A stretch of DNA of 64,000 nucleotides, from positions 192,001-256,000 of the forward strand of contig CAXXNO010000004.1 in the NCBI GenBank assembly GCA_963663235.2, read 5' to 3'. Shown here piece after piece: positions 7,298-47,790 of the stretch. Under the pieces are notes generated by a model. The model saw nothing but the letters and a program-made list of their open reading frames with translations. It ran no database searches and was not told the origin of the DNA. Source of the DNA: Dehalococcoidia bacterium. GTDB lineage: Bacteria > Chloroflexota > Dehalococcoidia > Bin125. The translations under genes were made by a program, and so were the position numbers. The number at the start of each line of letters is the position of its first letter. Position 1 is the stretch's first letter.

Positions 7298-8485
7298 ATG
7301 GGATTTCGAATCAACACGAACGCGGAAGCGGGCAATGCCCGCCGCAACCTAAACATCAGCAGCATGCGCATGGGCCGGGCGATGGAGCAGCTGTCGAGTG
7401 GTCTGCGGACCAACCGGGCCGCCGACGACGCCGCGGGCTTGGCGATCAGTGAAAAACTGCGCGCCCAGGTCCGCGGTCTGGGACAGGCCAGCCGCAACGC
7501 CCAGGACGCCGTCTCCATGATCGGGACGGCTGAGGGCCCCCTGGCCGAGGTGCACTCCATCCTCCAGCGGATGCGAGAGTTGACCGTCCAGACCGGCAAC
7601 ACGACGCTGTCCGGCGCCGACCGCACGGCCATCGGCGAGGAGATGCTCGCCCTCAAGGACGAGATCGACCGGATCGGCAACACCACGAAGTTCAACGGCA
7701 ACCAGCTGTTGACCGGCGCCCTCGTGACGGCGCTAGACGCCGCCAGCGAGATCAAGGTTGGGGTGGCCGTCAGCAACAACGTGGTCGCGTCCGTGGACGT
7801 GAGCAAGGCCAACGCCGGCACGACGTACAAATTCACCTACGTCGCCGGCACCAACGCCCTCACGCTCACCAACGCGACGACCAGCGTGGCCGAGACCATC
7901 ACCTTCGCCACCGCGGGCGCCGCCGGGGACAAGGTGCTGAGCTTCTCCCAGCTCGGCGTCACGGTCACCCTCACCGGCCCGGCCGAGGCTTTGGCCGACG
8001 ACATCGGCACCGCCCTGGACGCCGCCGGCACCGACGACGTGATCACCGCCGCCGGCAATAGCTCGGCGCAGTTCCAGGTGGGCGCGGATGCGGGCCAGAA
8101 CATCACCGTGGCCTTCGCGGACATGCGCTCCACGGCCATCGGCACCGGCGTGGGCAACCAGGTCTCCGACAAGGTGGCGGACAACCAGGCGGTGTCCACC
8201 ACGGCCAAGGCGGACGCGCTGCTGACCATCCTGGACGACGCCATCGCGGACGTGTCCACGCAGCGTGGCATTCTGGGCGCGGTGCAGAACCGCGTAGAGC
8301 ACACCATCGCGGCGTTGGGGATCGTGGTGGAGAACTTGAGCGCGCCGGAGAGCCGAATCCGCGACGCCGACATTGCCGCCGTTTCATCGACGCTGGTGAC
8401 GCAGCAGATCCTGCAGCAAGCGGGCATCTCCGTGCTGAGCCAGGCCAACCAGAACCCGCAAGCGGTCCTGTCCCTCCTCCGGTAG
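7298..8485 (+). CDS. fliC: Flagellin (copy 1)
   Basis: RINTN, LSSGLR.NRAADDAAGLAI, ESRIRDAD, QANQ.PQ.VLSLL. Confidence 0.97.
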   Translation: MGFRINTNAEAGNARRNLNISSMRMGRAMEQLSSGLRTNRAADDAAGLAISEKLRAQVRGLGQASRNAQDAVSMIGTAEGPLAEVHSILQRMRELTVQTGNTTLSGADRTAIGEEMLALKDEIDRIGNTTKFNGNQLLTGALVTALDAASEIKVGVAVSNNVVASVDVSKANAGTTYKFTYVAGTNALTLTNATTSVAETITFATAGAAGDKVLSFSQLGVTVTLTGPAEALADDIGTALDAAGTDDVITAAGNSSAQFQVGADAGQNITVAFADMRSTAIGTGVGNQVSDKVADNQAVSTTAKADALLTILDDAIADVSTQRGILGAVQNRVEHTIAALGIVVENLSAPESRIRDADIAAVSSTLVTQQILQQAGISVLSQANQNPQAVLSLLR

Positions 8486-8753: not shown

Positions 8754-9941
8754 GTGAGGCTACAGATCAACACCAACATTCAAGCGCTCAACGCGCAGCG
8801 GAACCTCAACGCCACCAGCGCGCGGCTGGGAAAGGCCCTGGAGAAGCTCTCGAGCGGCCTGCGAATCTACCGGGCCGCCGACGACGCCGCGGGCCTGGCG
8901 ATCAGTGGAAAGCTGCGCGTCCAGATCCGCGGACTGGGACAGGCCAGCCGCAACGCCCAGGACGCCGTCTCCATGATCGCGACGGCTGAGGGCCCCCTAG
9001 CCGAGGTGCAGAGCATCCTCCAGCGGATGCGGGAGTTGGCCGTCCAAGCCGGCAACACGACGCTGTCCCCCGCCGACCGCACGGCCATCGGCGAGGAGAT
9101 GCTGACCCTCCGGAACGAGATCGACCGGATCGGCAACACCACGAAGTTCAACGGCAACGCGCTGCTGACCGGCTCCCTGGTCACGGCGCTAGACGCCGCC
9201 AGCGAGATCAAGGTTGGGGTGGGCGTCAGCAACAACGTGGTCGCATCCGTGGACGTGAGCGAGGCCGCCGCCGGCACGACGTACAACTTCACCTACGGCG
9301 CCGGCACCAACGCCCTCACCCTCACCAACACGACGACCAGCGTGGCCGAGACCATCACCTTCGGCAGCGCGGGCGCGGCCGGGGACAAGAAGCTCAGCTT
9401 CTCCCAGCTCGGCGTCACGGTTACCCTCACCGGGCCGGCCGAGGCGGTGGCCGACGACATCGGCACCGCCCTGAACGCCGCCGGCCTCGACGACGTGATC
9501 ACCGCCGCCGGCAGTAGCTCGGCGCAGTTCCAGGTGGGCGCGGATGCGGGCCAGAGCATCACCGTGGCCTTCACGGACATGCGCGCCACGGCCATCGGCA
9601 CCGGCGCGGGCAACCAGGTCGCGGACAAGGTGGCGGACAACCAGGCGGTGTCCACTCCGGGCAAGGCGGACGCGCTGTTGACCATCCTGGACGACGCCCT
9701 GTTGGACGTCTCGACGCAGCGCGGCATCCTGGGCGCGGTGCAGAACCGCGTGGATCGCACCATCGCGGCGTTGGGGATCGTGGTGGAGAACTTGAGCGGG
9801 TCGGAGAGCCGCATCCGCGACGCCGACATCGCCGCCGTTTCATCGACGCTTGTGACGCAGCAGATCCTGCAGCAAGCGAGCATCTCCGTGCTGAGCCAGG
9901 CCAACCAGACGCCGCAGTCGGTCCTGCAGCTGCTCCAGTAG
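8754..9941 (+). CDS. fliC: Flagellin (copy 2)
   Basis: Same flagellin motifs and same 395-aa length; central domain nearly identical to copy 1; GTG start. Confidence 0.96.
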   Translation: MRLQINTNIQALNAQRNLNATSARLGKALEKLSSGLRIYRAADDAAGLAISGKLRVQIRGLGQASRNAQDAVSMIATAEGPLAEVQSILQRMRELAVQAGNTTLSPADRTAIGEEMLTLRNEIDRIGNTTKFNGNALLTGSLVTALDAASEIKVGVGVSNNVVASVDVSEAAAGTTYNFTYGAGTNALTLTNTTTSVAETITFGSAGAAGDKKLSFSQLGVTVTLTGPAEAVADDIGTALNAAGLDDVITAAGSSSAQFQVGADAGQSITVAFTDMRATAIGTGAGNQVADKVADNQAVSTPGKADALLTILDDALLDVSTQRGILGAVQNRVDRTIAALGIVVENLSGSESRIRDADIAAVSSTLVTQQILQQASISVLSQANQTPQSVLQLLQ

Positions 9942-37633: not shown

Positions 37634-39976
37634 TCAGCCCGTCACGGTGAACGCCGTCATGGCGGTTGCCGCGGGATCGGCCTGGGTGGCGGTCATGGTG
37701 AGCACCTCATCGATCTCGCCGAAGAACTGGTAGTTGAACGTGGCCGTGCCGGCCGCGTTCGCGACCGCCATCAAGGTGTCGCCGGTGACGATGTCCAGAG
37801 TGATGGTCGCTCCGGGCTCGGCGCCGACGACGGTGATGGTGGCCATGGTGCCGTTGGGGCCGCTGTCGGGGCTGACGGAGACGCCGAAGGGCGGCGGCTC
37901 GGTGATGGTGAAGGTGGCGAAGGCGGTCTGCTGATCGCCCGTCGGTCCGGCCGTGACCTCGAAGTTAAACACGTCCCCCGGCTCGCCATCGGCGAAGAAG
38001 AGCGAGAGGACGCGGCCGTCGGCATCGGCCGTTCTCACGTCGGTGCTGAGCAGAACGCCGCCCCGCAGGACGCGAATCACGATCGGGTCGCCGGGGAGGG
38101 CGCCGGTGATGATGATCTCGCCGGTGGTCCCGACGAGTCCCGACGATGGCACAATCGCCACCGCCAACGCTCGCTCCTCGATCTCCATCACCGGCTCGGC
38201 AGCCGTCCCGGTGATGGTGAACTTGGTGGTGGCCGTCTCGGTTCCAGCGGTGGCCTTGATGGCGATCTCGTCGCCGGGCTGGCCGGCGAACTGTTCGGAG
38301 GCCGAGGCGCGGCCGTTCCGGTCGGCGGTCAAGAAGTGCCGAGGCGTGCCAGCGACGTCGATATCGACGGCCTGGAAGGGGTCGGCGCCCTCGACGCTGA
38401 TCTCGCCGGTCGTCGCGGAGGGCCCGCTGGCGGGCGTTACCGTCACGGTCAACGTCTGCGCCGCTCCAGCGCCGGCCTGGGCCGCCTGTGGCAGCCAGAG
38501 GAACTGCAGCGTGGAGGTGAGCCAGTAGACCCCACCGCTCATAAAGCTGGTGAAGCCTTGCAACGTATCGTCGCGGCCGGGCACCCAAAGCAGCCAGCTG
38601 GCGACCGGGTCCAAGTACCAAATGCGAGTGACGTAGGCCAGAGCGTCAGCGCCGAGAACGTCCGCCACGGGGGCAGTGACGCCCGCGTACCCATACGGGT
38701 TGGAGCCACGGTAGAGTTGCGCGCCTTCGCGGCCGGTGATCGTGAACGTCGCGCGGACCTCGATCTCGCCGGTCGGCAGGAGCCACTCGATGGCCCGGAT
38801 CTCGATGGTGTCGCCGGGCTCGCCGCGGAACGTGTCCTGGATCTCGATCACGCCGTTCTCGTCGGCGACCTCGCCAAGATTGACGGTGGGCAATTCGCGC
38901 AAGGCCACCGACCCGCCGGGGCGCACGCCGGTGACGCGAATCGTCGCGACGGTGCCGCTGGGGCCCTCGGATGGCATGATGGTCACCGCGAGGCCGGCGG
39001 CCCCGCCGCCGACCACTCCGCCGCCCTGCTCGCCGTCTTGCGGCAGGGCGGTGATCGTGAACTGGGCCGAGCCGGTGCGGTCATTGCCACCAAAGCCGGC
39101 CGTGGCGTCGATCGGGACGACGTCGTCCACTTGCCCGTTGAAGGTGTGCGTGGTGGTAGCGCGGCCGTTGGCGTCGGCGGTGAGGTTGGTCGAGCCCTGG
39201 CCGATCTGCAGAGTGATGGGTGCGCCGGGCTCAGCGCCCTCGATGGTGATGGTGGCGGTCGTGCCGGTGGGGCCGGAGTCCGGAGACACGGTCACCGTGA
39301 GAGCGGCGGCGTTGCCGTCGCCGGCTGCCACCGGGAAGAGCCAGCGGAAGCCCGCGGTGGTGACGAACCAATAGAGCTGTCCGTCAACGAACTCCGGCGG
39401 GGGCTGCGTGCTCAGATTCGGGGGGAGGGGAGAAAGCGGCCAGACGAGCTGCCACTGCTGGGTGGCGGCGTCGAAGGTCCAGATCCGTTCGACGTTGTCG
39501 AGGTTGGACCCAAGCGCGGTGTCGATGCTCACGGTGGGGCCGGAGTAGACGACGGCGCTGCCGCCGGCCGCGACGTCGACGCCGGTGGGGCCTGCGGCCT
39601 TGATCGTGAACTGCGTCGAGGCGGTGGGACTGTCGGCCGAGGGCCCCGCCTGGGCGCTGATCGGGATCACCTCGTCGGGCCGGCCGAAGAACGTATGGGT
39701 GAAGGTGGCGTTGCCGTTGGCATCGGCGATGCCGGTGGTCAGGCCCCGGCCGATGGTCAAGGTGATGGGGTCGCCGGGCTGAGCGCCGCTGACGGTAATG
39801 GTGGCCTGCGTGCCGGAGGGGCCCTCATCGGGCGACACCATGACCGCGAGCGACGAGCCCCCCTGCGCGTGCGGCCCCGCATCCGCAAGCAGCGCCGCGA
39901 GCAGCATGGCGGCAAGCAGTGCCGCAACGACCCCGACCCGGTGTATCCGTCTGGCCACGACGACCTCCCTTATCAT
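37634..39976 (-). CDS. Secreted protein with six Ig-like repeats and two Trp-rich modules
   Basis: Signal peptide; six LxVxVsPxSGPxGT..TI repeats; RIWTFD..W and RIWYLD..W modules. Confidence 0.75.
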   Translation of the reverse strand: MIREVVVARRIHRVGVVAALLAAMLLAALLADAGPHAQGGSSLAVMVSPDEGPSGTQATITVSGAQPGDPITLTIGRGLTTGIADANGNATFTHTFFGRPDEVIPISAQAGPSADSPTASTQFTIKAAGPTGVDVAAGGSAVVYSGPTVSIDTALGSNLDNVERIWTFDAATQQWQLVWPLSPLPPNLSTQPPPEFVDGQLYWFVTTAGFRWLFPVAAGDGNAAALTVTVSPDSGPTGTTATITIEGAEPGAPITLQIGQGSTNLTADANGRATTTHTFNGQVDDVVPIDATAGFGGNDRTGSAQFTITALPQDGEQGGGVVGGGAAGLAVTIMPSEGPSGTVATIRVTGVRPGGSVALRELPTVNLGEVADENGVIEIQDTFRGEPGDTIEIRAIEWLLPTGEIEVRATFTITGREGAQLYRGSNPYGYAGVTAPVADVLGADALAYVTRIWYLDPVASWLLWVPGRDDTLQGFTSFMSGGVYWLTSTLQFLWLPQAAQAGAGAAQTLTVTVTPASGPSATTGEISVEGADPFQAVDIDVAGTPRHFLTADRNGRASASEQFAGQPGDEIAIKATAGTETATTKFTITGTAAEPVMEIEERALAVAIVPSSGLVGTTGEIIITGALPGDPIVIRVLRGGVLLSTDVRTADADGRVLSLFFADGEPGDVFNFEVTAGPTGDQQTAFATFTITEPPPFGVSVSPDSGPNGTMATITVVGAEPGATITLDIVTGDTLMAVANAAGTATFNYQFFGEIDEVLTMTATQADPAATAMTAFTVTG

Positions 39977-40159
39977 GCAGGCGCAGGAACGGCTCGCAAG
40001 CGGCCCACCGCCGCAGCGGAGCGCGCCCGCGGCGAGTCCTGGGGGATCTTAGGAGAACGGGAGACGGAGCGCATCGGCGCCGGGGCATCGGACGGTCGTG
40101 CGAGTATTGACGCCTCGCGGCGCGGACACCTAGCCTCGGCCGAACTATCGGAGGCAGCA

Positions 40160-41710
40160 ATGACACTCCTCTTCCGTCGTTGGTCTGGAGCCCTTGGCGT
40201 CCTCGCACTGGTCGCCGCCGTCGTGGGGCTCTCCGGTGCGCCGGACCCGAGTGCGGCCGCCTCGCCCGACGTTCGCGCGCAACAGGTCGACGAATCGGAC
40301 GGCGCCCTCACTCTCAACGACGGCGGCCAGTTCGTCTTCTGGTCCTTCGGGCCCTTCGACGCTGCCAACATCTTCGGGACTGTCAAGATCGCCTGGCTCT
40401 TCGACCCCGGCGCCGTGACCTGGACGGCCTTCATCCCCGCCCTCGGCACCGTCAACTTCCCCCTCGCCGATGGCGACGTGCTCTGGATCGTCTCCGAGGG
40501 CGATCAGGTCATTGACCTCGCGGGCGACGTTGTCACCGCCGACGATGGCAGCGCCACCCTCACCATCCCCCCCGGCGCGCTCCCCGAGGGCGTCTCCCCG
40601 GCCGACATCCGCATCCTCCCCGCCGACCGCGGCGAGGCCCTCGCCGCCTTCGAACTGCTCCCCGATGGGCTCACCTTCGCCGCGCCCGTCACGCTCACAC
40701 TGAGCCTGGAGGAGGGAGTGGAGGGCGCGGTCATCTTGCTGATCTCATCGGATGGCGCGGTGGAGTTGCTCGACACGGCGATCAGCGAGGATCCTGAAAC
40801 CGGCGGTCTCTCCCTCAGCGCCAGGCTGAGCCACTTCAGCTTCTCCTACGGGATCGATCTCATGGGCGTGATGGACACCGACCTCGCTCTCGCGGACGCC
40901 AGACCACAGGTCGGCGAACAGTTCGACGCCACGGTGGAGATCGACTTGGGCTCCGGCGCGTCGGGCACGGTTCCGGACCCTCTCACCGGCGAACCCCTCT
41001 TCGTGTTCTTCCAGCCCGTTAGCGACGCGGGGTTCCTCGCCGGTGGGCGACTCACGGCGGAGGGCCCGCTGGATCCAGCCACAGTCGATGATCTCCCTGC
41101 CGACCGCTCCGATCCCGGCACAACCGCGCCCTTCTTCTTTGAGCGCGCGATGTTCACCTGCCTGACGCCCGGCGCCTTCAGCCTGAATTACGCGGGCGAG
41201 GCTGAGTTGACGATCGGTGGCTCGGTGCTGCCAGAATCGGGTGATCTGCGGTCCCTGAAGCCGCGCGTTGTCACGGTCCGCCTCCGGGACGTGGTCCGCG
41301 ACGAGTGCGGCCCCAACCCCACCCTCGCCTGGGAAAACGTCTACACGCCCTTCGACGACACCAACGTCTACACGGCCGGGCTCCTGGATCCGTTTGATGA
41401 ACTCGACGCCGACACCAGCACGGTCGAGTGGATACTCATCAATAGTGTCTGCGGCGATCCCCGGCGCACGGGCGAGTTCAGCTACGCGTACTCTCACGGC
41501 ATCAACAGCGCCGACGGGGAGGGCCCGCTCTCCTCCTGTAGCCTCCCGCAGGAGGAAGTCTTCAGCCTGGCGTTTGTCGTCACGCTGACGCTCCGCTCCG
41601 GCGGAGCCTGCGAGTTCAGCTACCTCCAGGAGACCGCCCGCGCCCTGCAGAACCGGGGCCCACAGAACGTCCAGTGGACCGGCTTGTTCTGCGACCTGCC
41701 GGGAGGTTGA
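40160..41710 (+). CDS. Secreted protein: Trp-rich module, ZU5-like domain, unknown C-terminus
   Basis: ATG 40160 after GGAGG; signal peptide; LTIPPGAL...PDGLTFAAPVTLTL...SHFS. Confidence 0.75.
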   Translation: MTLLFRRWSGALGVLALVAAVVGLSGAPDPSAAASPDVRAQQVDESDGALTLNDGGQFVFWSFGPFDAANIFGTVKIAWLFDPGAVTWTAFIPALGTVNFPLADGDVLWIVSEGDQVIDLAGDVVTADDGSATLTIPPGALPEGVSPADIRILPADRGEALAAFELLPDGLTFAAPVTLTLSLEEGVEGAVILLISSDGAVELLDTAISEDPETGGLSLSARLSHFSFSYGIDLMGVMDTDLALADARPQVGEQFDATVEIDLGSGASGTVPDPLTGEPLFVFFQPVSDAGFLAGGRLTAEGPLDPATVDDLPADRSDPGTTAPFFFERAMFTCLTPGAFSLNYAGEAELTIGGSVLPESGDLRSLKPRVVTVRLRDVVRDECGPNPTLAWENVYTPFDDTNVYTAGLLDPFDELDADTSTVEWILINSVCGDPRRTGEFSYAYSHGINSADGEGPLSSCSLPQEEVFSLAFVVTLTLRSGGACEFSYLQETARALQNRGPQNVQWTGLFCDLPGG

Positions 41711-41713
41711 GCG

Positions 41714-41836
41714 GCCGACTTCACCGTGCCCGAGGAGACCCGCCTCACGCTCGACGGCCTGCGCGCCTTCGTGCGCGCCGAGGTGGAGCCGCGTGAGGAG
41801 CAACTGCGCGACGTGCTGGACGATCCGCGCCGCCGG
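41714..41836 (+). pseudogene. Remnant of the 5' end of an acyl-CoA dehydrogenase-like gene
   Basis: ADFTVPEETRLTLDGLRAFVRAEVEPREEQL...DPRR, then similarity stops. Confidence 0.45.
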
Positions 41837-41837
41837 C

Positions 41838-43060
41838 CTACGAGCCGGTCGCGTCCTCGGGGGGCATCGGCGATCCCGATGCGTCGCTATCGGTCTCCGC
41901 TCCGTCCGCCTCCGCCGGGGGGGGGGGAGGGGGGGGCGCCCACCCCGGGAGATCACGGCGTAGGGGTCGGGTTGGTCCTTGACGGCCTCGACGAACTGGA
42001 TGATGTCGGACGTCGCCGTGTACTGGCGGTAGGTGGAGAGCGCGACACGAACCGGGGGGTCGCGATCGGTGTAGTAGCCGTACTGGTCGATGCGGCCGGC
42101 GAGCGCGGGGAAGGCGAGCTGCATGAGTGCGCTCACGCCGGTCTCCTCAGCGTAGTTGTCCGCCAGTTGGTCGAAGGGCCCGTCGTAATAGTCGTTCCGG
42201 CGGACGTTCAGCAGGCGCACGCCGGCAAACACCTTCCGGCCGAGTGAATCCTCCCAGAACGCAAAGCCGCTCCGCCGGCCGATGAGGAGCTCCTCACCGA
42301 ATGCGTCGAGGACGTCGGGCACGTCGCGCTCCTCGTTGAGCACCCAGATGAAGTAGTTGTCCTGCTCGTTGAAGAGGAGATAGAACTCATAGCCCGATTC
42401 ATCGAAGGTCCGCTGCACGAACCGTTCGTCCGGAAGGAGGAACAAGGCGTCGGGCAGCGTCTGGTCAAGCGGATGGAGATGGAAGATCACGCGCTTGGCT
42501 TTGAACTCCACGGTGTACGTGAGCGGATCCCGCTCCGTCACGAGGACCCCGTCCTCCTCCGAGAAGAAGCGCGAACCGCTGAGGCTCTGGCTGCCGAAGG
42601 TGGGAAACTCGATGAACTCAAAATACCCGAACGAGAGCACGCCCTCCTCCCGCTGCCCGGCGGCGAGACGGATGTTCCCCCAGATCTCGCGGCCCTGGAC
42701 GTCCAAAATGAAGTAGTAGTAGTTCTCCGAGGGGTAGACGATCACCTCGTCCGGGAGCCCGGCGAATACGGTGGCGAAGACGCTCGCGGGCTGCTCCAGA
42801 TCGACGCCGTCGGCGCGGAACCCTTCGACCAGCACTTGATTGAACGTCAGGTAGGCGCCGGGGGCGGCGCTCACATCGCTGCCCTCGGGCGGTGGCGCTG
42901 CCTGGGGGGCAGACGCCGAATCGACGGTGGTCGCGGTTTCGGCGGCCGGGGCGGAGGGCGCATCGGGAGTGTCTTCGTCCTGACCCGACGAACAGGCGAC
43001 GGTGAAGGCGGCCACGAGCGGCAGGAGGAGCCCGAGCACATAAAGCGGGCGCAGGTTCAC
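41838..43060 (-). CDS. Uncharacterised lipoprotein; frameshift in C8-T-C11 tract near 3' end
   Basis: Lipobox FTVAC; aromatic core YPSENYYYF, GNIRL, YYDGPFDQLADNY; acidic tail ending at TAG 41838 lies in another frame. Confidence 0.7.
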
Positions 43061-43301
43061 GGAAGCACACCTCCCTCCAGATGCCGGTGTGCGGCGACCG
43101 CCCGCAGCGCCGACGGGATCGGCGACCAGCCGGGATCACCGCCTTGCCCCCCCGACCGAGCTCGACATCAGAGCGCCGGGCCTGCGCGGTTAGGATAGCC
43201 ACGAAGCCTCCTTGAAGTATCTCCGATGCGGCTGCTGGAGTAGAATCGCGCCGCATCCGACTCGGCACGGCATCCAGACCGGGCCGCGGGGCGGGTGAGG
43301 G

Positions 43302-45326
43302 TTGGAGTGTCCGATACGTCGTCGCCTCCTTATTCTCGGCCTGCTGGTTCTTGGACTGTCCGCCATCGCCGGAACGGTCATCGTCACGCAGCAGTCCGGC
43401 GATAGCGTCCACGCGGGTCCGGGCGGCCCCGGTCCCGGTCCCGGCGGCGGCTGCCCGGCGGGGGTGGCGATCGACGGGGGAGGGGGATGCCCCGACGGCG
43501 GCCTGATCTGCCCGGCAAGCACCGGCGGGGGAGGGGGATGCCCCCCCGACGACGGCGTGATCTGCCCGGCGGGGGTCACGCTCAAAGGGGAATGCCCCAG
43601 TGGTCGTGACGGCGGCGGTTGCCCCCCGTTGCGGACCGGCGGCCAGTTCGCCGTCCCTGGTCCCAACGCCGATCCCCCGCTCGGGGTGGTCAAACCGGAC
43701 GGACTCGGCGGCGGCTGCCCCGACGGCGGTGTGATCTGCGTCGCCGGGGATAGCGGAGGGCCTCCCGGTCCCGTCTGCCATGACGCGGCGCTAAGCGGGA
43801 TCCACGATGCGGCTCTGAGCGCCACCCATGATGCGGTGGCGAGCGCCCTCCACGACCCGACTGGCAGCGCTCTTCACGATCCGGGTCTCAGCCTGGTCCA
43901 CGACGCTGTGGTGAGCTCTACGCACGACCCGGTCCTCAGCGTCATGCACGATCCCGCACTCAGCCTGATCCACGATGCGGTCCTCAGCGCGGCCGGCCCG
44001 GTCTGCGGGGGAGACCTCGTCGTGCTAGGAGAAGTCGACGGCGGGGGCAGGCTCCCCAGCTGCGACATACACGGGGGCCTTTTGAGCGACCTGCATCTCC
44101 CGGACGCGAGCCTGGAGCACGATCCAGCCCTCAGTCTCGTCCATGACCCGGCACTGACGGGCAGCGGCCACAGTCCGCTCCTCAGTGGCGGGCACGATCC
44201 GGCAATCACCGCCATCCATGCGCCCTTCTCCACCGCACTCCACGACCCGGTTCTCACCGCCGTGCACGACCCGACCTCGACCGCCGGCCACGACCCCGTA
44301 GCGAGCGATCTGCACGGTGCGGTGATCAGTGGTGCGCACCTGCCGGAGTTCAGCCTGGTGCACGAGCCGCTCCTCAGCGCCACGCACGATCCCGACTTGA
44401 GCCTGGTGCACGATCCGGCTCTCACCGCCGCGGGCCCGCTCTGCGCGGCAGGCGTCCCGGCCTGCCATGACCCGGTGGTCAGCCCGCTCCTCGGGCTCCA
44501 TGACCCGGCCCTCACTGCCCTCCACGACCCGGCGCTGAGTGCTTTGCACGATCCTGGGATCAGTACGCTCCACGATCCGGGGGTGAGCGTTCTCCACGAC
44601 CCCGTCCCCAGTAGTGTCCACTTCCCGCTCGTCAGCGGTGGACATGCCCCTGTAGACAGCGCCATCCACAATCCCGTCGCGAGCGCCATCGGGGGCGACC
44701 CCCCAGTCGTCGACTTGTGCGCTCTCTTCGGCTTTTGCCTTGGGCCCGCAGCCGCGTCCTTCGCGGACACCCTGCCGGCCGGGCTGCACAGCGCACAGCT
44801 CGGGGGCTGCGACGCTGCGCAGCTCGCGGACGCGGAATACAGCGTGACCACGCTCGACGACGCGACCTCACTGGAACTGGGCTACGGCATCGGTGGGCAA
44901 CTGGCGACACTGGACGCCTGCGTGCAAGTCTTGCTCCCGGCCGACTTCACCTTCACCGACGGCTGGCAAGCGCCGCCGCAGGGCGCCGTATTCGATTTGG
45001 ACGAGAGCCTGGAGGGGTTGGAACTCGCGGCCATCGGCTCCGTGCTTCCAGCCAGTCTCGAAGACTGGAGCCTCGACTTCTTCCTGCCGGTTGATTCCGG
45101 CGAGGTCCTTGCCTTGGTCACGGGCGGGCAGTTCCTGTTCTGGCAGTTCGGGCCGGCGAACGCGGCCGATGTGTTCGGCACGGTCAAGATCGCCTGGCTG
45201 TTCGATCCCGTGGCGATCAGCTGGATCTCGTTCATTCCCGCGTTGGGCATCACCGACTTTGCGCTCGACGCCGGCGCCGTGCTGTGGATCGTGTCGGAGA
45301 CCGATCAGGAGATCGCCATCGGCTAG
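43302..45326 (+). CDS. Secreted Cys/Gly-rich and His-octapeptide-repeat protein with C-terminal Trp-rich module
   Basis: Signal peptide; GGGCP..GG.IC repeats; 33 H-D-P-x-L-S-x-x units; C-terminal module shared with the 40160 gene. Confidence 0.8.
   Translation: MECPIRRRLLILGLLVLGLSAIAGTVIVTQQSGDSVHAGPGGPGPGPGGGCPAGVAIDGGGGCPDGGLICPASTGGGGGCPPDDGVICPAGVTLKGECPSGRDGGGCPPLRTGGQFAVPGPNADPPLGVVKPDGLGGGCPDGGVICVAGDSGGPPGPVCHDAALSGIHDAALSATHDAVASALHDPTGSALHDPGLSLVHDAVVSSTHDPVLSVMHDPALSLIHDAVLSAAGPVCGGDLVVLGEVDGGGRLPSCDIHGGLLSDLHLPDASLEHDPALSLVHDPALTGSGHSPLLSGGHDPAITAIHAPFSTALHDPVLTAVHDPTSTAGHDPVASDLHGAVISGAHLPEFSLVHEPLLSATHDPDLSLVHDPALTAAGPLCAAGVPACHDPVVSPLLGLHDPALTALHDPALSALHDPGISTLHDPGVSVLHDPVPSSVHFPLVSGGHAPVDSAIHNPVASAIGGDPPVVDLCALFGFCLGPAAASFADTLPAGLHSAQLGGCDAAQLADAEYSVTTLDDATSLELGYGIGGQLATLDACVQVLLPADFTFTDGWQAPPQGAVFDLDESLEGLELAAIGSVLPASLEDWSLDFFLPVDSGEVLALVTGGQFLFWQFGPANAADVFGTVKIAWLFDPVAISWISFIPALGITDFALDAGAVLWIVSETDQEIAIG
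43779..44690 (+). repeat. Degenerate 24-bp coding repeat (HDPxL[S/T]xx) in blocks of 9, 15 and 9
   Basis: His recurs every 8 residues (two longer units); blocks are separated by Cys-containing linkers. Confidence 0.92.
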
Positions 45327-45429
45327 CGAGGCCCGATTCGTCACCGCGGCTGCCACGCGTCCGGCCAGCCTCGTGCTGCGCGACGGAGCGGCGATGGGCA
45401 GCAGCAGCTCGTTGCAGACGCCGCCTGCC

Positions 45430-47667
45430 TCACGTCGCGGCGGCGGTCAGGCGGATGAAGAAGGCGTCGCCGTTGGCGAGCGTCTCCAACGTGTTACCGA
45501 CGGGTGCGCCGCGGCGCCAGGTGTCGTAGCCGACGCCGTTCCAGCGGAAGACGGCGTCCGCGGCGTCGAGGCCTGCGAGGGCGGCCTCGATGTCCATGGC
45601 CGGGCCGGTCCACATCGCCAGGTTGAGCCCGGCGAGGAGGGCGACGGATCGGGCGTCGTTGAAGGCGGGCTGCTCCCAGGTCGCTGCCTGGTCCATGACG
45701 ATCCAGAAGGCGTCGCCGGTGTTCACGTCGGTCAGGCCCTGCACCGCCGCGGGCAGGCCGGGGATGAAGGAGACGTAGCCCTGGGCGGCGGCGTCCCAGC
45801 CCAGGATCTGGCTGAAGAGGCCGGCGATGGAGGCCGTGGCGTCGAGGATGGCGGTGTCGCCGGTCCAGCCGACGAGGTTGAGGCCGGGGACCAGGCTCAC
45901 GCTGCGGGTCTGGGCCACCACCTCCATCACCTGATCCGGCGTGCCGAGGAAGCCGTAGAGGGCGCCGGTGGGGGCGGCGAAGGGGCTGCTCTTGTGGAGG
46001 CGGGCCGTGACCACGAGGTCGGGGAGGCCGTCCAGGTTGATGCCGGCGACGTCCAGGTCGCCGCCGAAGAGCTCGCCCGGGGGCCCCACGTAGGCGCGGG
46101 TCGCCAGTTGCGCGAGGGTGCCGGACTCAAGCGGGCCTTCGACGACGTAGACCACGCCGGCCTCGTCGCTGACGCCGGCCTGCGCGGCCTGGACGTCGGC
46201 ACTGTCGGCGCCGGGGACGCCGATGAGCAGGTCGAGCGCGCCGTCGAGGTTGACGTCGGCCAATTCGAGCGCCAGGCCGCGGTGCCCGTTGGGGATGCCG
46301 GAGATGCGCGCGGCCCAGGGCTGGGCCTCGTCAATTTGCTCGTCCGCGCCTTGCGGGCCGAAGGGGAGCACCGCGTCGATCAGCCAGACGGAGGAATCGC
46401 CGGCGCCAGCGGCGGCGCCGACAGCGACGCAGGCGCCGGCGCAGAAGCCGCTGCGGCCTTGCCCGCTCACGGCGAGCGTGCCGCCGAAGGCGGGGTCATC
46501 GGCGCGGACGGTGCGGACAGGGGCGGGATCGAAGGGCGTCTCCACCCCGCCGGAGCGGACCAGCATCTCCACACGGCCGCCGGCGCCGTCCGCGCCGGGA
46601 ATCCCCACGATGATCACGCGGCGCGTGACGAACAGCGCCTCGCCGAAGGCGGGCTCAGCGCCCGGTTCCCAGATCGTGATCGGGACGTGCGAGGGCACCG
46701 GGACTTGCTGCACCGAAAGGGAATCCAGGGGCGTGAGGGCATCAGGGTGATCCGCGGGAGCGGGGGAGACTTGCGTATCAACTGGAGTGAGAGGGCGCTG
46801 GCCGGGGCCTAAGCGGCCGAAGGGTAGGTCGTCCGACGTGGGGTCGTCGTCCGGCGTGGGGTCGCCGCCAAAGGGGTTGTTGCCGTCCGACGAGATGTCG
46901 TCGCCAAAGGTGTCGTCGATACCGCTGTCGTCGCCGGGGACGCCCGGCAGGGGGTCAAAGAAGTCGTCATCAGGTTCGGCATCCGGAGCCAGATCGCACG
47001 CCCCGAAGAAGACGCCGAAGCCGGGGTTCGTCTCGCAGATGTCCGGATCCAACTGCCCCAGATCGACAAGCTCGGCCCCGCGCTCCGTGAGGACGAATGT
47101 GGGACCAGCAGAGGTGTTCGCCGTTCGCGCGACCCGAACCTGGGCGCTGGTCGGAGGGACGGCGAACACGATGTTCAGAATCCCGTCTCCGTCGAGGTCG
47201 AAGATCTGCGGATTGCGGTCAAGGGAGCCGAAAGCGCGGCCAACCAGAGAAACGGCGGCCACCCTCGACCAGGGGCGGCCGTCCAGCCGGGTGCAGTCGG
47301 GCGCACCGCCGACCTGGGGGCATAGGACCGCGAACGACTCACCGGCGCCGACGGGGAGCGTGTCGGCAAGGGGGTCCGTGATGAAGAAGGCGGCCTGTCC
47401 CGCCGCCGGGCTGACGCCCGCGAGGACGTTGACGGGAAAGAGCAGGGGCGCATCGAAGTCACCGGCCTCGCGTACGTCCAGGACGGGACCGCCGAGGAGA
47501 AGGAAGTCGGCGTCGGCGGCGTCGATGACGTTGAGGCCGGTGATCTGAGCGACTTCCGTCGCCGCGTGTGGTCCCGCCGCGCGGGACGGGGCGGGGTTCG
47601 CGGTCAGACCAGCGCTCAGAACGATGGCCACCATGACGGCAGCGAAGAGCAGTCTTGTCCGGGACAT
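45430..47667 (-). CDS. Secreted FG-GAP repeat protein with two C-terminal Trp-rich modules
   Basis: Signal peptide; DLDGDG, DVNLDGALDLLIGVPG..AGVVYV, INLDGLPDLVV; LVPGLNLVGWTG and LLAGLNLAMWTG repeats. Confidence 0.78.
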   Translation of the reverse strand: MSRTRLLFAAVMVAIVLSAGLTANPAPSRAAGPHAATEVAQITGLNVIDAADADFLLLGGPVLDVREAGDFDAPLLFPVNVLAGVSPAAGQAAFFITDPLADTLPVGAGESFAVLCPQVGGAPDCTRLDGRPWSRVAAVSLVGRAFGSLDRNPQIFDLDGDGILNIVFAVPPTSAQVRVARTANTSAGPTFVLTERGAELVDLGQLDPDICETNPGFGVFFGACDLAPDAEPDDDFFDPLPGVPGDDSGIDDTFGDDISSDGNNPFGGDPTPDDDPTSDDLPFGRLGPGQRPLTPVDTQVSPAPADHPDALTPLDSLSVQQVPVPSHVPITIWEPGAEPAFGEALFVTRRVIIVGIPGADGAGGRVEMLVRSGGVETPFDPAPVRTVRADDPAFGGTLAVSGQGRSGFCAGACVAVGAAAGAGDSSVWLIDAVLPFGPQGADEQIDEAQPWAARISGIPNGHRGLALELADVNLDGALDLLIGVPGADSADVQAAQAGVSDEAGVVYVVEGPLESGTLAQLATRAYVGPPGELFGGDLDVAGINLDGLPDLVVTARLHKSSPFAAPTGALYGFLGTPDQVMEVVAQTRSVSLVPGLNLVGWTGDTAILDATASIAGLFSQILGWDAAAQGYVSFIPGLPAAVQGLTDVNTGDAFWIVMDQAATWEQPAFNDARSVALLAGLNLAMWTGPAMDIEAALAGLDAADAVFRWNGVGYDTWRRGAPVGNTLETLANGDAFFIRLTAAAT

Positions 47668-47790
47668 GCGCGCCTCCGTTTCCGCAGGGCGCAAGGGCTA
47701 GTCGTCGGGGCGCGGGGCGTCAACGCGGCGGCACGTGCGGCGATACGGTCCGCGTCGCGCTCGATGCAGCGCAAGCGTCGATCTGAAGGG

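Follow-up and report, generated by a model that had tools for sequence, protein, structure and literature searches.

We analysed a 64,000-nucleotide stretch of the genome of a Dehalococcoidia bacterium (GenBank assembly GCA_963663235.2, contig CAXXNO010000004.1, positions 192,001 to 256,000 of the forward strand), here called the window and numbered from its first letter. On its forward strand, at 43302-45326, lies an open reading frame (ORF) with a TTG start that encodes a 674-aa protein of His/Ser octapeptide repeats (P0001), and a conserved lipoprotein gene, here called the partner, is its divergent neighbour. GC content of the repeat ORF by codon position was 0.74/0.52/0.81, the coding pattern of this window with its 69% GC. 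Codon-position GC marks 43302-45326 on the forward strand as the coding frame, which makes the periodic ORFs of the other strand its shadows. An original prediction, made from the letters alone, had described a predicted secreted 674-aa protein here, and both the ORF and its codon-position GC agree with it. Independent contigs from runs X1 and X3 (one study) supported the repeat gene: they covered the repeats with one or two differences, no gaps and no change in length. The features of the two genes are listed below.

41912..43060, reverse strand: partner, conserved lipoprotein gene, divergent neighbour, its lower limit at about 41912 (relatives, alignment, AlphaFold2)
43061..43301, no strand: divergent intergenic region between partner and repeat gene (11-nt inverted repeat, 43222-43232 and 43250-43260)
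43302..45326, forward strand: His/Ser-repeat gene, P0001 (ORF, translation, codon-position GC, independent contigs)
43302..43385, forward strand: N-terminal signal peptide or membrane anchor, residues 1-28, RRRLLILGLLVLGLSAIAG (AlphaFold2 helix at residues 4-27; predicted local distance difference test score, pLDDT, 81-91)
43413..43778, forward strand: Gly/Pro/Cys-rich region, residues 38-159, with 10 Cys and GGGCP..G.ICPAG units of about 18 residues (Tandem Repeats Finder, TRF; Cys positions)
43779..43994, forward strand: repeat block 1, nine units, residues 160-231 (His at 160-224)
43995..44069, forward strand: linker 1, with Cys235 and Cys254 (translation, Cys positions)
44070..44432, forward strand: repeat block 2, 15 units, residues 257-377, one unit of nine residues (His at 257-370)
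44433..44465, forward strand: linker 2, with Cys381 and Cys388 (translation, Cys positions)
44466..44690, forward strand: repeat block 3, nine units, residues 389-463, first unit of 11 residues (His at 389-456)
44691..45101, forward strand: linker (Cys473/479) and middle domain, residues 464-600 (alignment with relatives)
45102..45326, forward strand: C-terminal beta-rich domain of about 74 aa, residues 601-674 (genome matches; AlphaFold2 pLDDT 70-77)

The repeat region spans 304 residues (160-463; nt 43779-44690) and contained 33 units of the form H-[D]-[P]-x-x-[S/T]-x-x in blocks of 9, 15 and 9, exactly where the original prediction had placed them. His residues fell at 160-224 (9), 257-370 (15) and 389-456 (9), and within blocks they were eight residues apart save for one spacing of nine and one of eleven. 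Five residues after each His stood Ser (26 units) or Thr (7 units), a total of 33/33. Asp occupied +1 in 23/33 units, and +2 was Pro in 26/33 and Ala in 6. His-His pairs at +8 numbered 28; among 20,000 shuffled versions of the protein there were never more than 9. The region held 33 His, 31 Asp, 4 Glu, 1 Arg and no Lys. Cys residues were found around the blocks at C159, C235/C254, C381/C388 and C473/C479, and by their positions those that bracket the blocks look like pairs formed within linkers.

At the DNA level the repeats were diverged. Mean identity among the 24-nt units was 0.57, none of the 528 pairs was identical, and TRF returned just short, weak 24-nt arrays. Unit identity by codon position was 0.64/0.61/0.45, with the least agreement at the third position. 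The divergence of the units, least alike at the third codon position, indicates that the period has been kept by selection on the protein and not by recent slippage, as had been proposed from the retention of His and Ser/Thr in diverged DNA. All 26 repeat Ser codons are AGY, and Ser codon families are therefore uninformative on selection. Upstream of the blocks, TRF detected a period of 54 nt (2.3 copies, 43451-43576) in the Gly/Pro/Cys-rich region, which was modelled at a pLDDT of about 30. The hydrophobic N-terminal helix modelled at residues 4-27 is in keeping with the secretion that had been predicted, and the signal would be cleaved after AIA. Neither Pfam nor NCBIfam gave the repeat protein a match above cut-off, so that it still has no named family, and a PDB sequence search was empty (best E 1.2).

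Relatives of the repeat were sought among 1.84 billion representatives. The search returned 177 proteins at E<=0.001, most of which matched the C-terminal domain only. Tandem H-x4-[S/T] units (at least four) were found in 37 of 152 other proteins, of which one or two (e.g. P0152) may be unrelated simple repeats. Across 1047 units from 36 relatives, +5 was Ser in 91% and Thr in 7%; Asp at +1 fell to 37% and Pro at +2 to 45%, and no single residue exceeded 21% at any remaining position. His and Ser/Thr were present in every relative, and the conservation of His among homologs expected by the original prediction was thus upheld. Its Cys-bracketed blocks fared less well: the brackets are present in the window protein but are not kept in relatives, several close ones lacking Cys altogether (0 Cys in P0003, P0005, P0010 and P0011). 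Position 5 of the unit was L in 21%, V in 11%, R in 9% and T in 9% of the relatives' units, and no hydrophobic position was conserved family-wide.

Unit number rose from 33 in the window protein to 100-276 in relatives, giving polymers of up to 2,600 residues. In 15 large partner-linked proteins, successive cores stood 8 residues apart in 1797 of 2058 cases, with 100 spacings of 9 and 80 of 10. The H-D-P-x-x-S core also occurred in longer units beside the same partner gene, with lengths of 10 (L014), 11 (L013, L043), 12 (L043, L045) and 13 residues (L023); examples are HDPAASATPV (10), HDPVASDGGGG (11) and SHSDVFSNHGDA (12). By sequence comparison, the conserved element is the hexapeptide motif and not a geometric period.

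The repeat was found beside several unrelated head domains, which identifies it, on the evidence of these sequences, as a movable module. P0007 (2410 aa, 148 units) combines it with a VWA domain and an HExxH motif; in other proteins it accompanies Cys-rich modules (P0008), subtilase and fn3 domains (P0017) or Laminin_G_3 (P0033). Four distant carriers (P0039, P0044, P0124, P0134) contain PG_binding_1, and some partner-linked repeat proteins carry FGE-sulfatase or dockerin domains. In two Opitutales loci (L029 2625-7757, L033 2813-7915) an FGE-sulfatase-like domain is fused N-terminal to the repeat polymer, and in a Phycisphaerae locus (L018 6110-10105) the polymer terminates in a type I dockerin.

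The partner carries the signal LVAAFTVAC followed by SSGQ. Lipobox variants among its relatives were FLAAC, LIMAC, VIAC and LAAGC, with LLAAAC in the paralogue at C5 of the same genome, and these signals mark it as a predicted bacterial lipoprotein. Its conserved body ends in ...DPYAVISRGG. The ORF is formally open to 40745, antisense through the next gene; the coding signal stops near 41750, and the C5 paralogue has a stop 27 residues past ISRGG. Contigs from other runs carry indels exactly at the G/C-rich run after ...ISRGG (X1 lacks 2 nt at 41917, X8 lacks 11 nt at 41918), which makes an assembly indel or a strain variant the probable source of the run-on frame.

No Pfam, NCBIfam or PADLOC family matched the partner. 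An alignment of 41 rows (A3) contained 26 invariant columns, many of them acidic, Tyr, Asn or Arg, including E53, D161-E162-S163, N230, D234, D238, Q239 and R279; conserved motifs were YPSENYYYF, RTFDESG and RNDYYDGPFDQLADNY. The same 41 rows showed no conserved His, Cys or Met. AlphaFold2 modelled a mostly beta protein at pLDDT 87.1 and a predicted template modelling score (pTM) of 0.83. Foldseek returned nothing at E<=0.001, with template modelling (TM) scores of at most 0.15; VIA-align against 48,161 chains gave a best Z of 4.3 over 72 residues, under the usual noise, and the partner profile had no match among PDB sequences (best E 0.72). The model and searches describe a protein that is predicted to be well folded and is strongly constrained, with no recognised fold, and its conservation and predicted structure make it look like a specific binder or enzyme.

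To place the partner across genomes, the lipoprotein was compared with 185,579 species genomes. This gave 48 loci, at 36-61% identity, in Dehalococcoidia, SAR202 and other Chloroflexota, in Verrucomicrobiota and in Planctomycetota. A His/Ser-repeat ORF lay within 1.5 kb of the lipoprotein in 25 of the 48 loci (22 counting uninterrupted arrays only), and in 10 loci the lipoprotein was itself less than 1.5 kb from a contig end. As a rule the repeat gene preceded the lipoprotein gene on the same strand; in two Planctomycetota loci it followed, and in the window's own genome and its nearest relatives the two genes diverge. Adjacency was kept although gene order changes between lineages. All-versus-all clustering of flanking ORFs found no third family common across phyla, and Pfam identified unrelated housekeeping genes among 96 flanking ORFs, taken from 41 of the 48 loci.

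A quick tree was built from 41 lipoprotein rows, with nine loci excluded (partial, redundant or with a stop) and the window protein and its paralogue added. All 26 rows with a repeat neighbour fell inside one 34-row clade (Shimodaira-Hasegawa-like approximate likelihood ratio test, SH-aLRT, 97), and none of the seven rows outside or deeper than this clade had such a neighbour. Planctomycetota rows were nested among Chloroflexota rows, which suggests that the gene pair may have been transferred between phyla. The pair occurs twice in its own genome (G000), at C4 and C5, with unrelated flanks. Repeat region and lipoprotein were each found in the same three of 61 related genomes (G000, G001, G010), and a search of another 400 Chloroflexota genomes detected neither gene. 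In this assembly the copy of the repeat gene at C5 (L011, 2526-4600, reverse strand) is broken into three or more reading frames. The same stretches are read without interruption in P0026 and P0019, which come from other assemblies; this suggests that errors of sequencing or assembly within the repeats, and not decay of the gene, broke the frames.

Eight Dehalococcoidia loci (L021, L025, L026, L027, L028, L030, L038, L039) had a small GT2 glycosyltransferase gene directly after the lipoprotein. A GT4 glycosyltransferase was next in six of the eight, and a GFO/IDH/MocA oxidoreductase was further downstream in five. This arrangement hints that the polymer or the surrounding envelope may be glycosylated in that lineage. 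The window itself had no glycosyltransferase beside the gene pair.

The structure of the repeat protein was modelled with AlphaFold2 on an 18-row alignment. Mean pLDDT for the whole protein was 41.6, with confidence confined to the helix at the N-terminus, a portion of the middle domain and the C-terminal domain. Residues 26-500 scored about 30 on these 18 rows and showed no secondary structure, with no strand throughout. The low-scoring repeats agree with two facts from sequence, the lack of a conserved hydrophobic position and the varying unit length. In-register stacking calls for a constant unit length; the longer units of L014, L013, L043, L045 and L023 rule this out, as do the spacings of 9 or 10 in 180 of 2058 cases among the 15 large proteins. 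Inward-facing hydrophobic positions were also looked for, and besides His and Ser no position exceeded 45% for one residue in the 1047 units. A coil of fixed geometry is unlikely, because units of 10-13 residues beside the same partner would not be tolerated. Since the hexapeptide motif is kept and the period is not, the stacked His-ladder solenoid put forward in the original prediction was dropped as the leading model.

We favour, with moderate confidence, a two-gene envelope module in which the lipoprotein would bind or modify the hexapeptide cores of a non-globular surface polymer. The repeat protein would be exported as an extended, non-globular, acidic chain and would probably be held at the surface through its C-terminal 74-aa domain. 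Its functional unit would be the short linear motif H-[D]-[P]-x-x-[S/T], carried on short variable spacers. The co-inherited lipoprotein, tethered to the membrane's outer face, would read this motif and either dock the polymer multivalently or covalently alter the Ser/Thr hydroxyl, with His as a recognition or helper residue. The 33 His/Asp pairs may also lend the chain cation binding or a pH response. Because Ser and Thr interchange at +5, the comparison suggests that the hydroxyl group is what matters there, as at modification sites. The last alternative of the original prediction, that the repeats serve as a repetitive substrate for post-translational modification, is still viable, and the conserved partner gene, which that prediction had not noted, lends it weight.

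A bolder version of this module, which we regard as rather unlikely, makes the lipoprotein a cofactor-free extracytoplasmic enzyme of new fold that rewrites every H-x4-S unit, producing a new class of cross-linked surface polymer. The product could be a histidinoalanine-type six-residue ring tying the His ring to the Ser-derived carbon, or Ser could be esterified or glycosylated. If true, a ribosomally made polymer of hundreds of units would be cross-linked after translation by a two-gene cassette spread between marine phyla.

Several points weigh against a module of motif polymer and motif-reading lipoprotein. Binding or modification of the motif by the lipoprotein is a step that we infer from linkage and from the motif, and family and fold searches with the partner found no recognisable catalytic fold or cofactor site. 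Thirteen of the 48 loci had flanks present and no adjoining repeat gene, and four repeat-less loci (L019, L020, L041, L044) lie within the core clade. The co-occurrence counts overstate the case and describe a pattern rather than test it, since related genomes are not independent. With an alignment of 18 rows a low pLDDT is no proof of disorder, and in the window protein positions 5 and 8 are mostly L, V or I, so that some local structure is possible. PF21300 (LbR_Ice_bind), the grass antifreeze beta roll with 7-8-residue units, gave 30.7 bits with P0003 (cut-off 30) and 21.7 bits with P0004.

These last points belong to the proposal of a beta-solenoid or beta-roll with a stacked His ladder for metal, mineral or haem and Cys clamping the blocks. 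The strict 8-residue period of the window protein, its mostly hydrophobic positions 5 and 8 and the PF21300 scores speak for it, and PF21300 units resemble the present ones in length, often end in Ser-Gly and start with His/Asn. However, no beta roll was predicted here, and relatives beside the same partner differ in unit length; no core position is conserved, Arg being common at position 5 of the relatives; Cys is missing from most of them; and the window protein sequence has no CxxCH or other haem motif. At the gathering cut-off of 30 bits PF21300 matched neither the window protein nor P0005 or P0006, and the matches that it does give reflect period and composition. We consider the solenoid improbable. 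Metal could also be held with no solenoid at all, by a disordered buffering brush in which His and Asp bind Zn, Cu, Ni, Co or Fe and the lipoprotein takes or passes the metal. The 33 His and 31 Asp set against no Lys and one Arg in 304 residues are consistent with such a brush, as is the position of His as the sole fully fixed residue across the family. Genes near the repeat-less paralogue L044 (4190-11233) encode a Cu-type P-type ATPase that contains cupredoxin and HMA domains, a plastocyanin-like lipoprotein whose N-terminus is rich in His/Asp, and a cytochrome c. The copper-binding prion octarepeat (PHGGGWGQ; PMC6721516, PMC7504422) likewise places one His in every eight residues of a flexible extracellular chain. 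Its sequence is unrelated, and it differs from the present repeat with its Pro at +2, fixed Ser/Thr at +5, strongly acidic chain and partner gene. A prion-type His-Gly-Gly copper site was rejected on the Pro at +2 of 26/33 units. Pro has no amide hydrogen, and at +2 it would block the amide-nitrogen coordination of the prion octarepeat. A brush also has no obvious use, in metal binding, for the Ser/Thr so strictly kept at +5; just 37% of the relatives' units have Asp at +1, and the lipoprotein conserves none of His, Cys and Met. Among the flanking ORFs scanned there was no shared metal transporter or regulator, copper-related genes appearing only at L044. Metal or proton binding by His/Asp is plausible from composition, possibly alongside the module role, but it leaves the fixed Ser unexplained and has no consistent genomic support; as the whole explanation, the metal brush seems doubtful to us.

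The repeats could instead be a passive spacer or stalk that distances heads from the cell, with His and Ser serving solubility, protease resistance or hydration and the lipoprotein having an unrelated job. Their combination with many different head and anchor domains would fit, and so would a composition like that of low-complexity linkers. A passive linker would not, however, hold two residues five apart through 1047 units, nor would it remain beside one gene across three phyla despite changes in gene order, and we judge a mere stalk unlikely. A polyprotein precursor, from which a lipoprotein peptidase cuts each unit, for example at the Asp-Pro bond, and frees octapeptides, is very improbable. 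Multi-copy precursors are known in other systems, and in the lipoprotein a D-E-S triplet is invariant and further acidic residues are present. Four of the eight positions vary freely, though, and would yield heterogeneous products; the folded head and anchor domains on these chains fit an intact surface protein; and the lipoprotein matches no peptidase fold or family.

The gene pair is an undescribed two-gene module; a full-text literature search found nothing on the repeat or the partner, subscription journals being outside its coverage. Among described systems the nearest is HxsA, from the HXS anti-phage system, an exported His-x-Ser repeat protein that is matured by radical-SAM enzymes (PMC13128918). 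HxsA resembles the present protein in being exported, in its tandem His and Ser units and in needing dedicated partner genes, and it has a peptidoglycan-binding domain, as do the four distant carriers of the present repeat noted above. It differs in having five H-x-S tripeptides where 33-276 H-x4-S units occur here, and in partners that are two cytoplasmic radical-SAM enzymes and HxsD in place of one exported lipoprotein. The HxsA family TIGR03979 matched neither the window protein (E<=1) nor 8 relatives (E<=0.01). HxsA-type His-Xaa-Ser tripeptides were rejected, Ser/Thr standing at +5 of His in 33/33 units. No Radical_SAM family, as adjacent HxsB/HxsC maturases would show, was found in 12 window neighbours or in the 96 flanking ORFs. 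Membership of HXS fails on every feature tested.

Other comparisons concern period, composition or architecture. The Ser-Asp repeat stalks of staphylococcal Sdr/Clf proteins are modified by the SdgA/SdgB glycosyltransferases encoded nearby. Like the present polymer they place a long non-globular stalk with hydroxyl residues between a head domain and a wall anchor, and the GT2/GT4 genes after the lipoprotein in eight Dehalococcoidia loci recall their arrangement. They differ in a dipeptide unit that has no His and in glycosyltransferases that are cytoplasmic, whereas the universal partner here is a lipoprotein with no recognised fold. Cornifin and the small proline-rich proteins (PF02389) also have octapeptide repeats with proline, and several relatives scored over the cut-off of 34.8 bits (L053 101.7, L046 77.2, L017 64.6, P0007 44.6). 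These matches reflect period and composition, because most have no single significant stretch. Cornifin is a mammalian epidermal family, and the repeat region here has no Lys; membership was rejected for the window protein at 13.6 bits. Positions ~400-485 of the PADLOC profile PDLC03396 (REase_II, type II nicking endonuclease) matched the repeats of L017 and L046 at 75-78 bits, and the window protein at 14.3. The profile may contain a repeat stretch and bear no relation to nuclease function; a nuclease identity was rejected on this ground, the sole match lying within those repeats.

Neither gene matches a curated family and the partner resembles no solved fold in the searches made, yet the pair is kept in Chloroflexota, Verrucomicrobiota and Planctomycetota. 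Polymers of up to 276 units represent a large cellular investment. Two fixed residues repeated hundreds-fold together with a dedicated exported protein point to an undescribed envelope chemistry of binding, modification or metal handling, and the answer would assign a function to very large hypothetical surface proteins of abundant marine bacteria.

Outside the repeats, the middle domain was common only to the Dehalococcoidia subfamily of repeat proteins (aligned: P0003-P0005, P0009-P0011, P0013, P0014, P0019), and its residues 501-555 were modelled at pLDDT 76-83. The 74-aa C-terminal domain was more widespread in its own 2.75-Mb genome, occurring in about 25 further ORFs (33 matches, most to residues 595-674) and at either end of the protein. 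It is probably a lineage-specific envelope-attachment module. It has no Pfam family, and a search with the full-length model found no fold match for it (best Z 5.1, to small RCK_C/HPr-like beta-alpha folds, uninformative). A low-depth contig of run X8 (depth 2) links 42836 to 45199 and skips the lipoprotein N-terminus and nearly all of the repeat gene; it may come from a relative with no repeat gene, or be a chimera formed through the multi-copy C-terminal domain.

The two genes lie in an island of five exported proteins at 37634-47694. The C-terminal domain recurs there in the products of 37634-39976 (reverse strand) and ~40160-41710 (forward strand), and weakly in an FG-GAP protein (45430-47694, reverse strand). 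Alignment of the divergent intergenic region with four relatives revealed no conserved regulatory site. Its inverted repeat, TCCGATGCGGC / GCCGCATCCGA with the arms 17 nt apart, was not conserved in these four. Elsewhere in the window, at 7298-8485 and 8754-9941 on the forward strand, are tandem 395-aa genes that are 85% identical; their products start MGFRINTNAEA... and MRLQINTNIQA... and appear flagellin-like as read from these residues alone.

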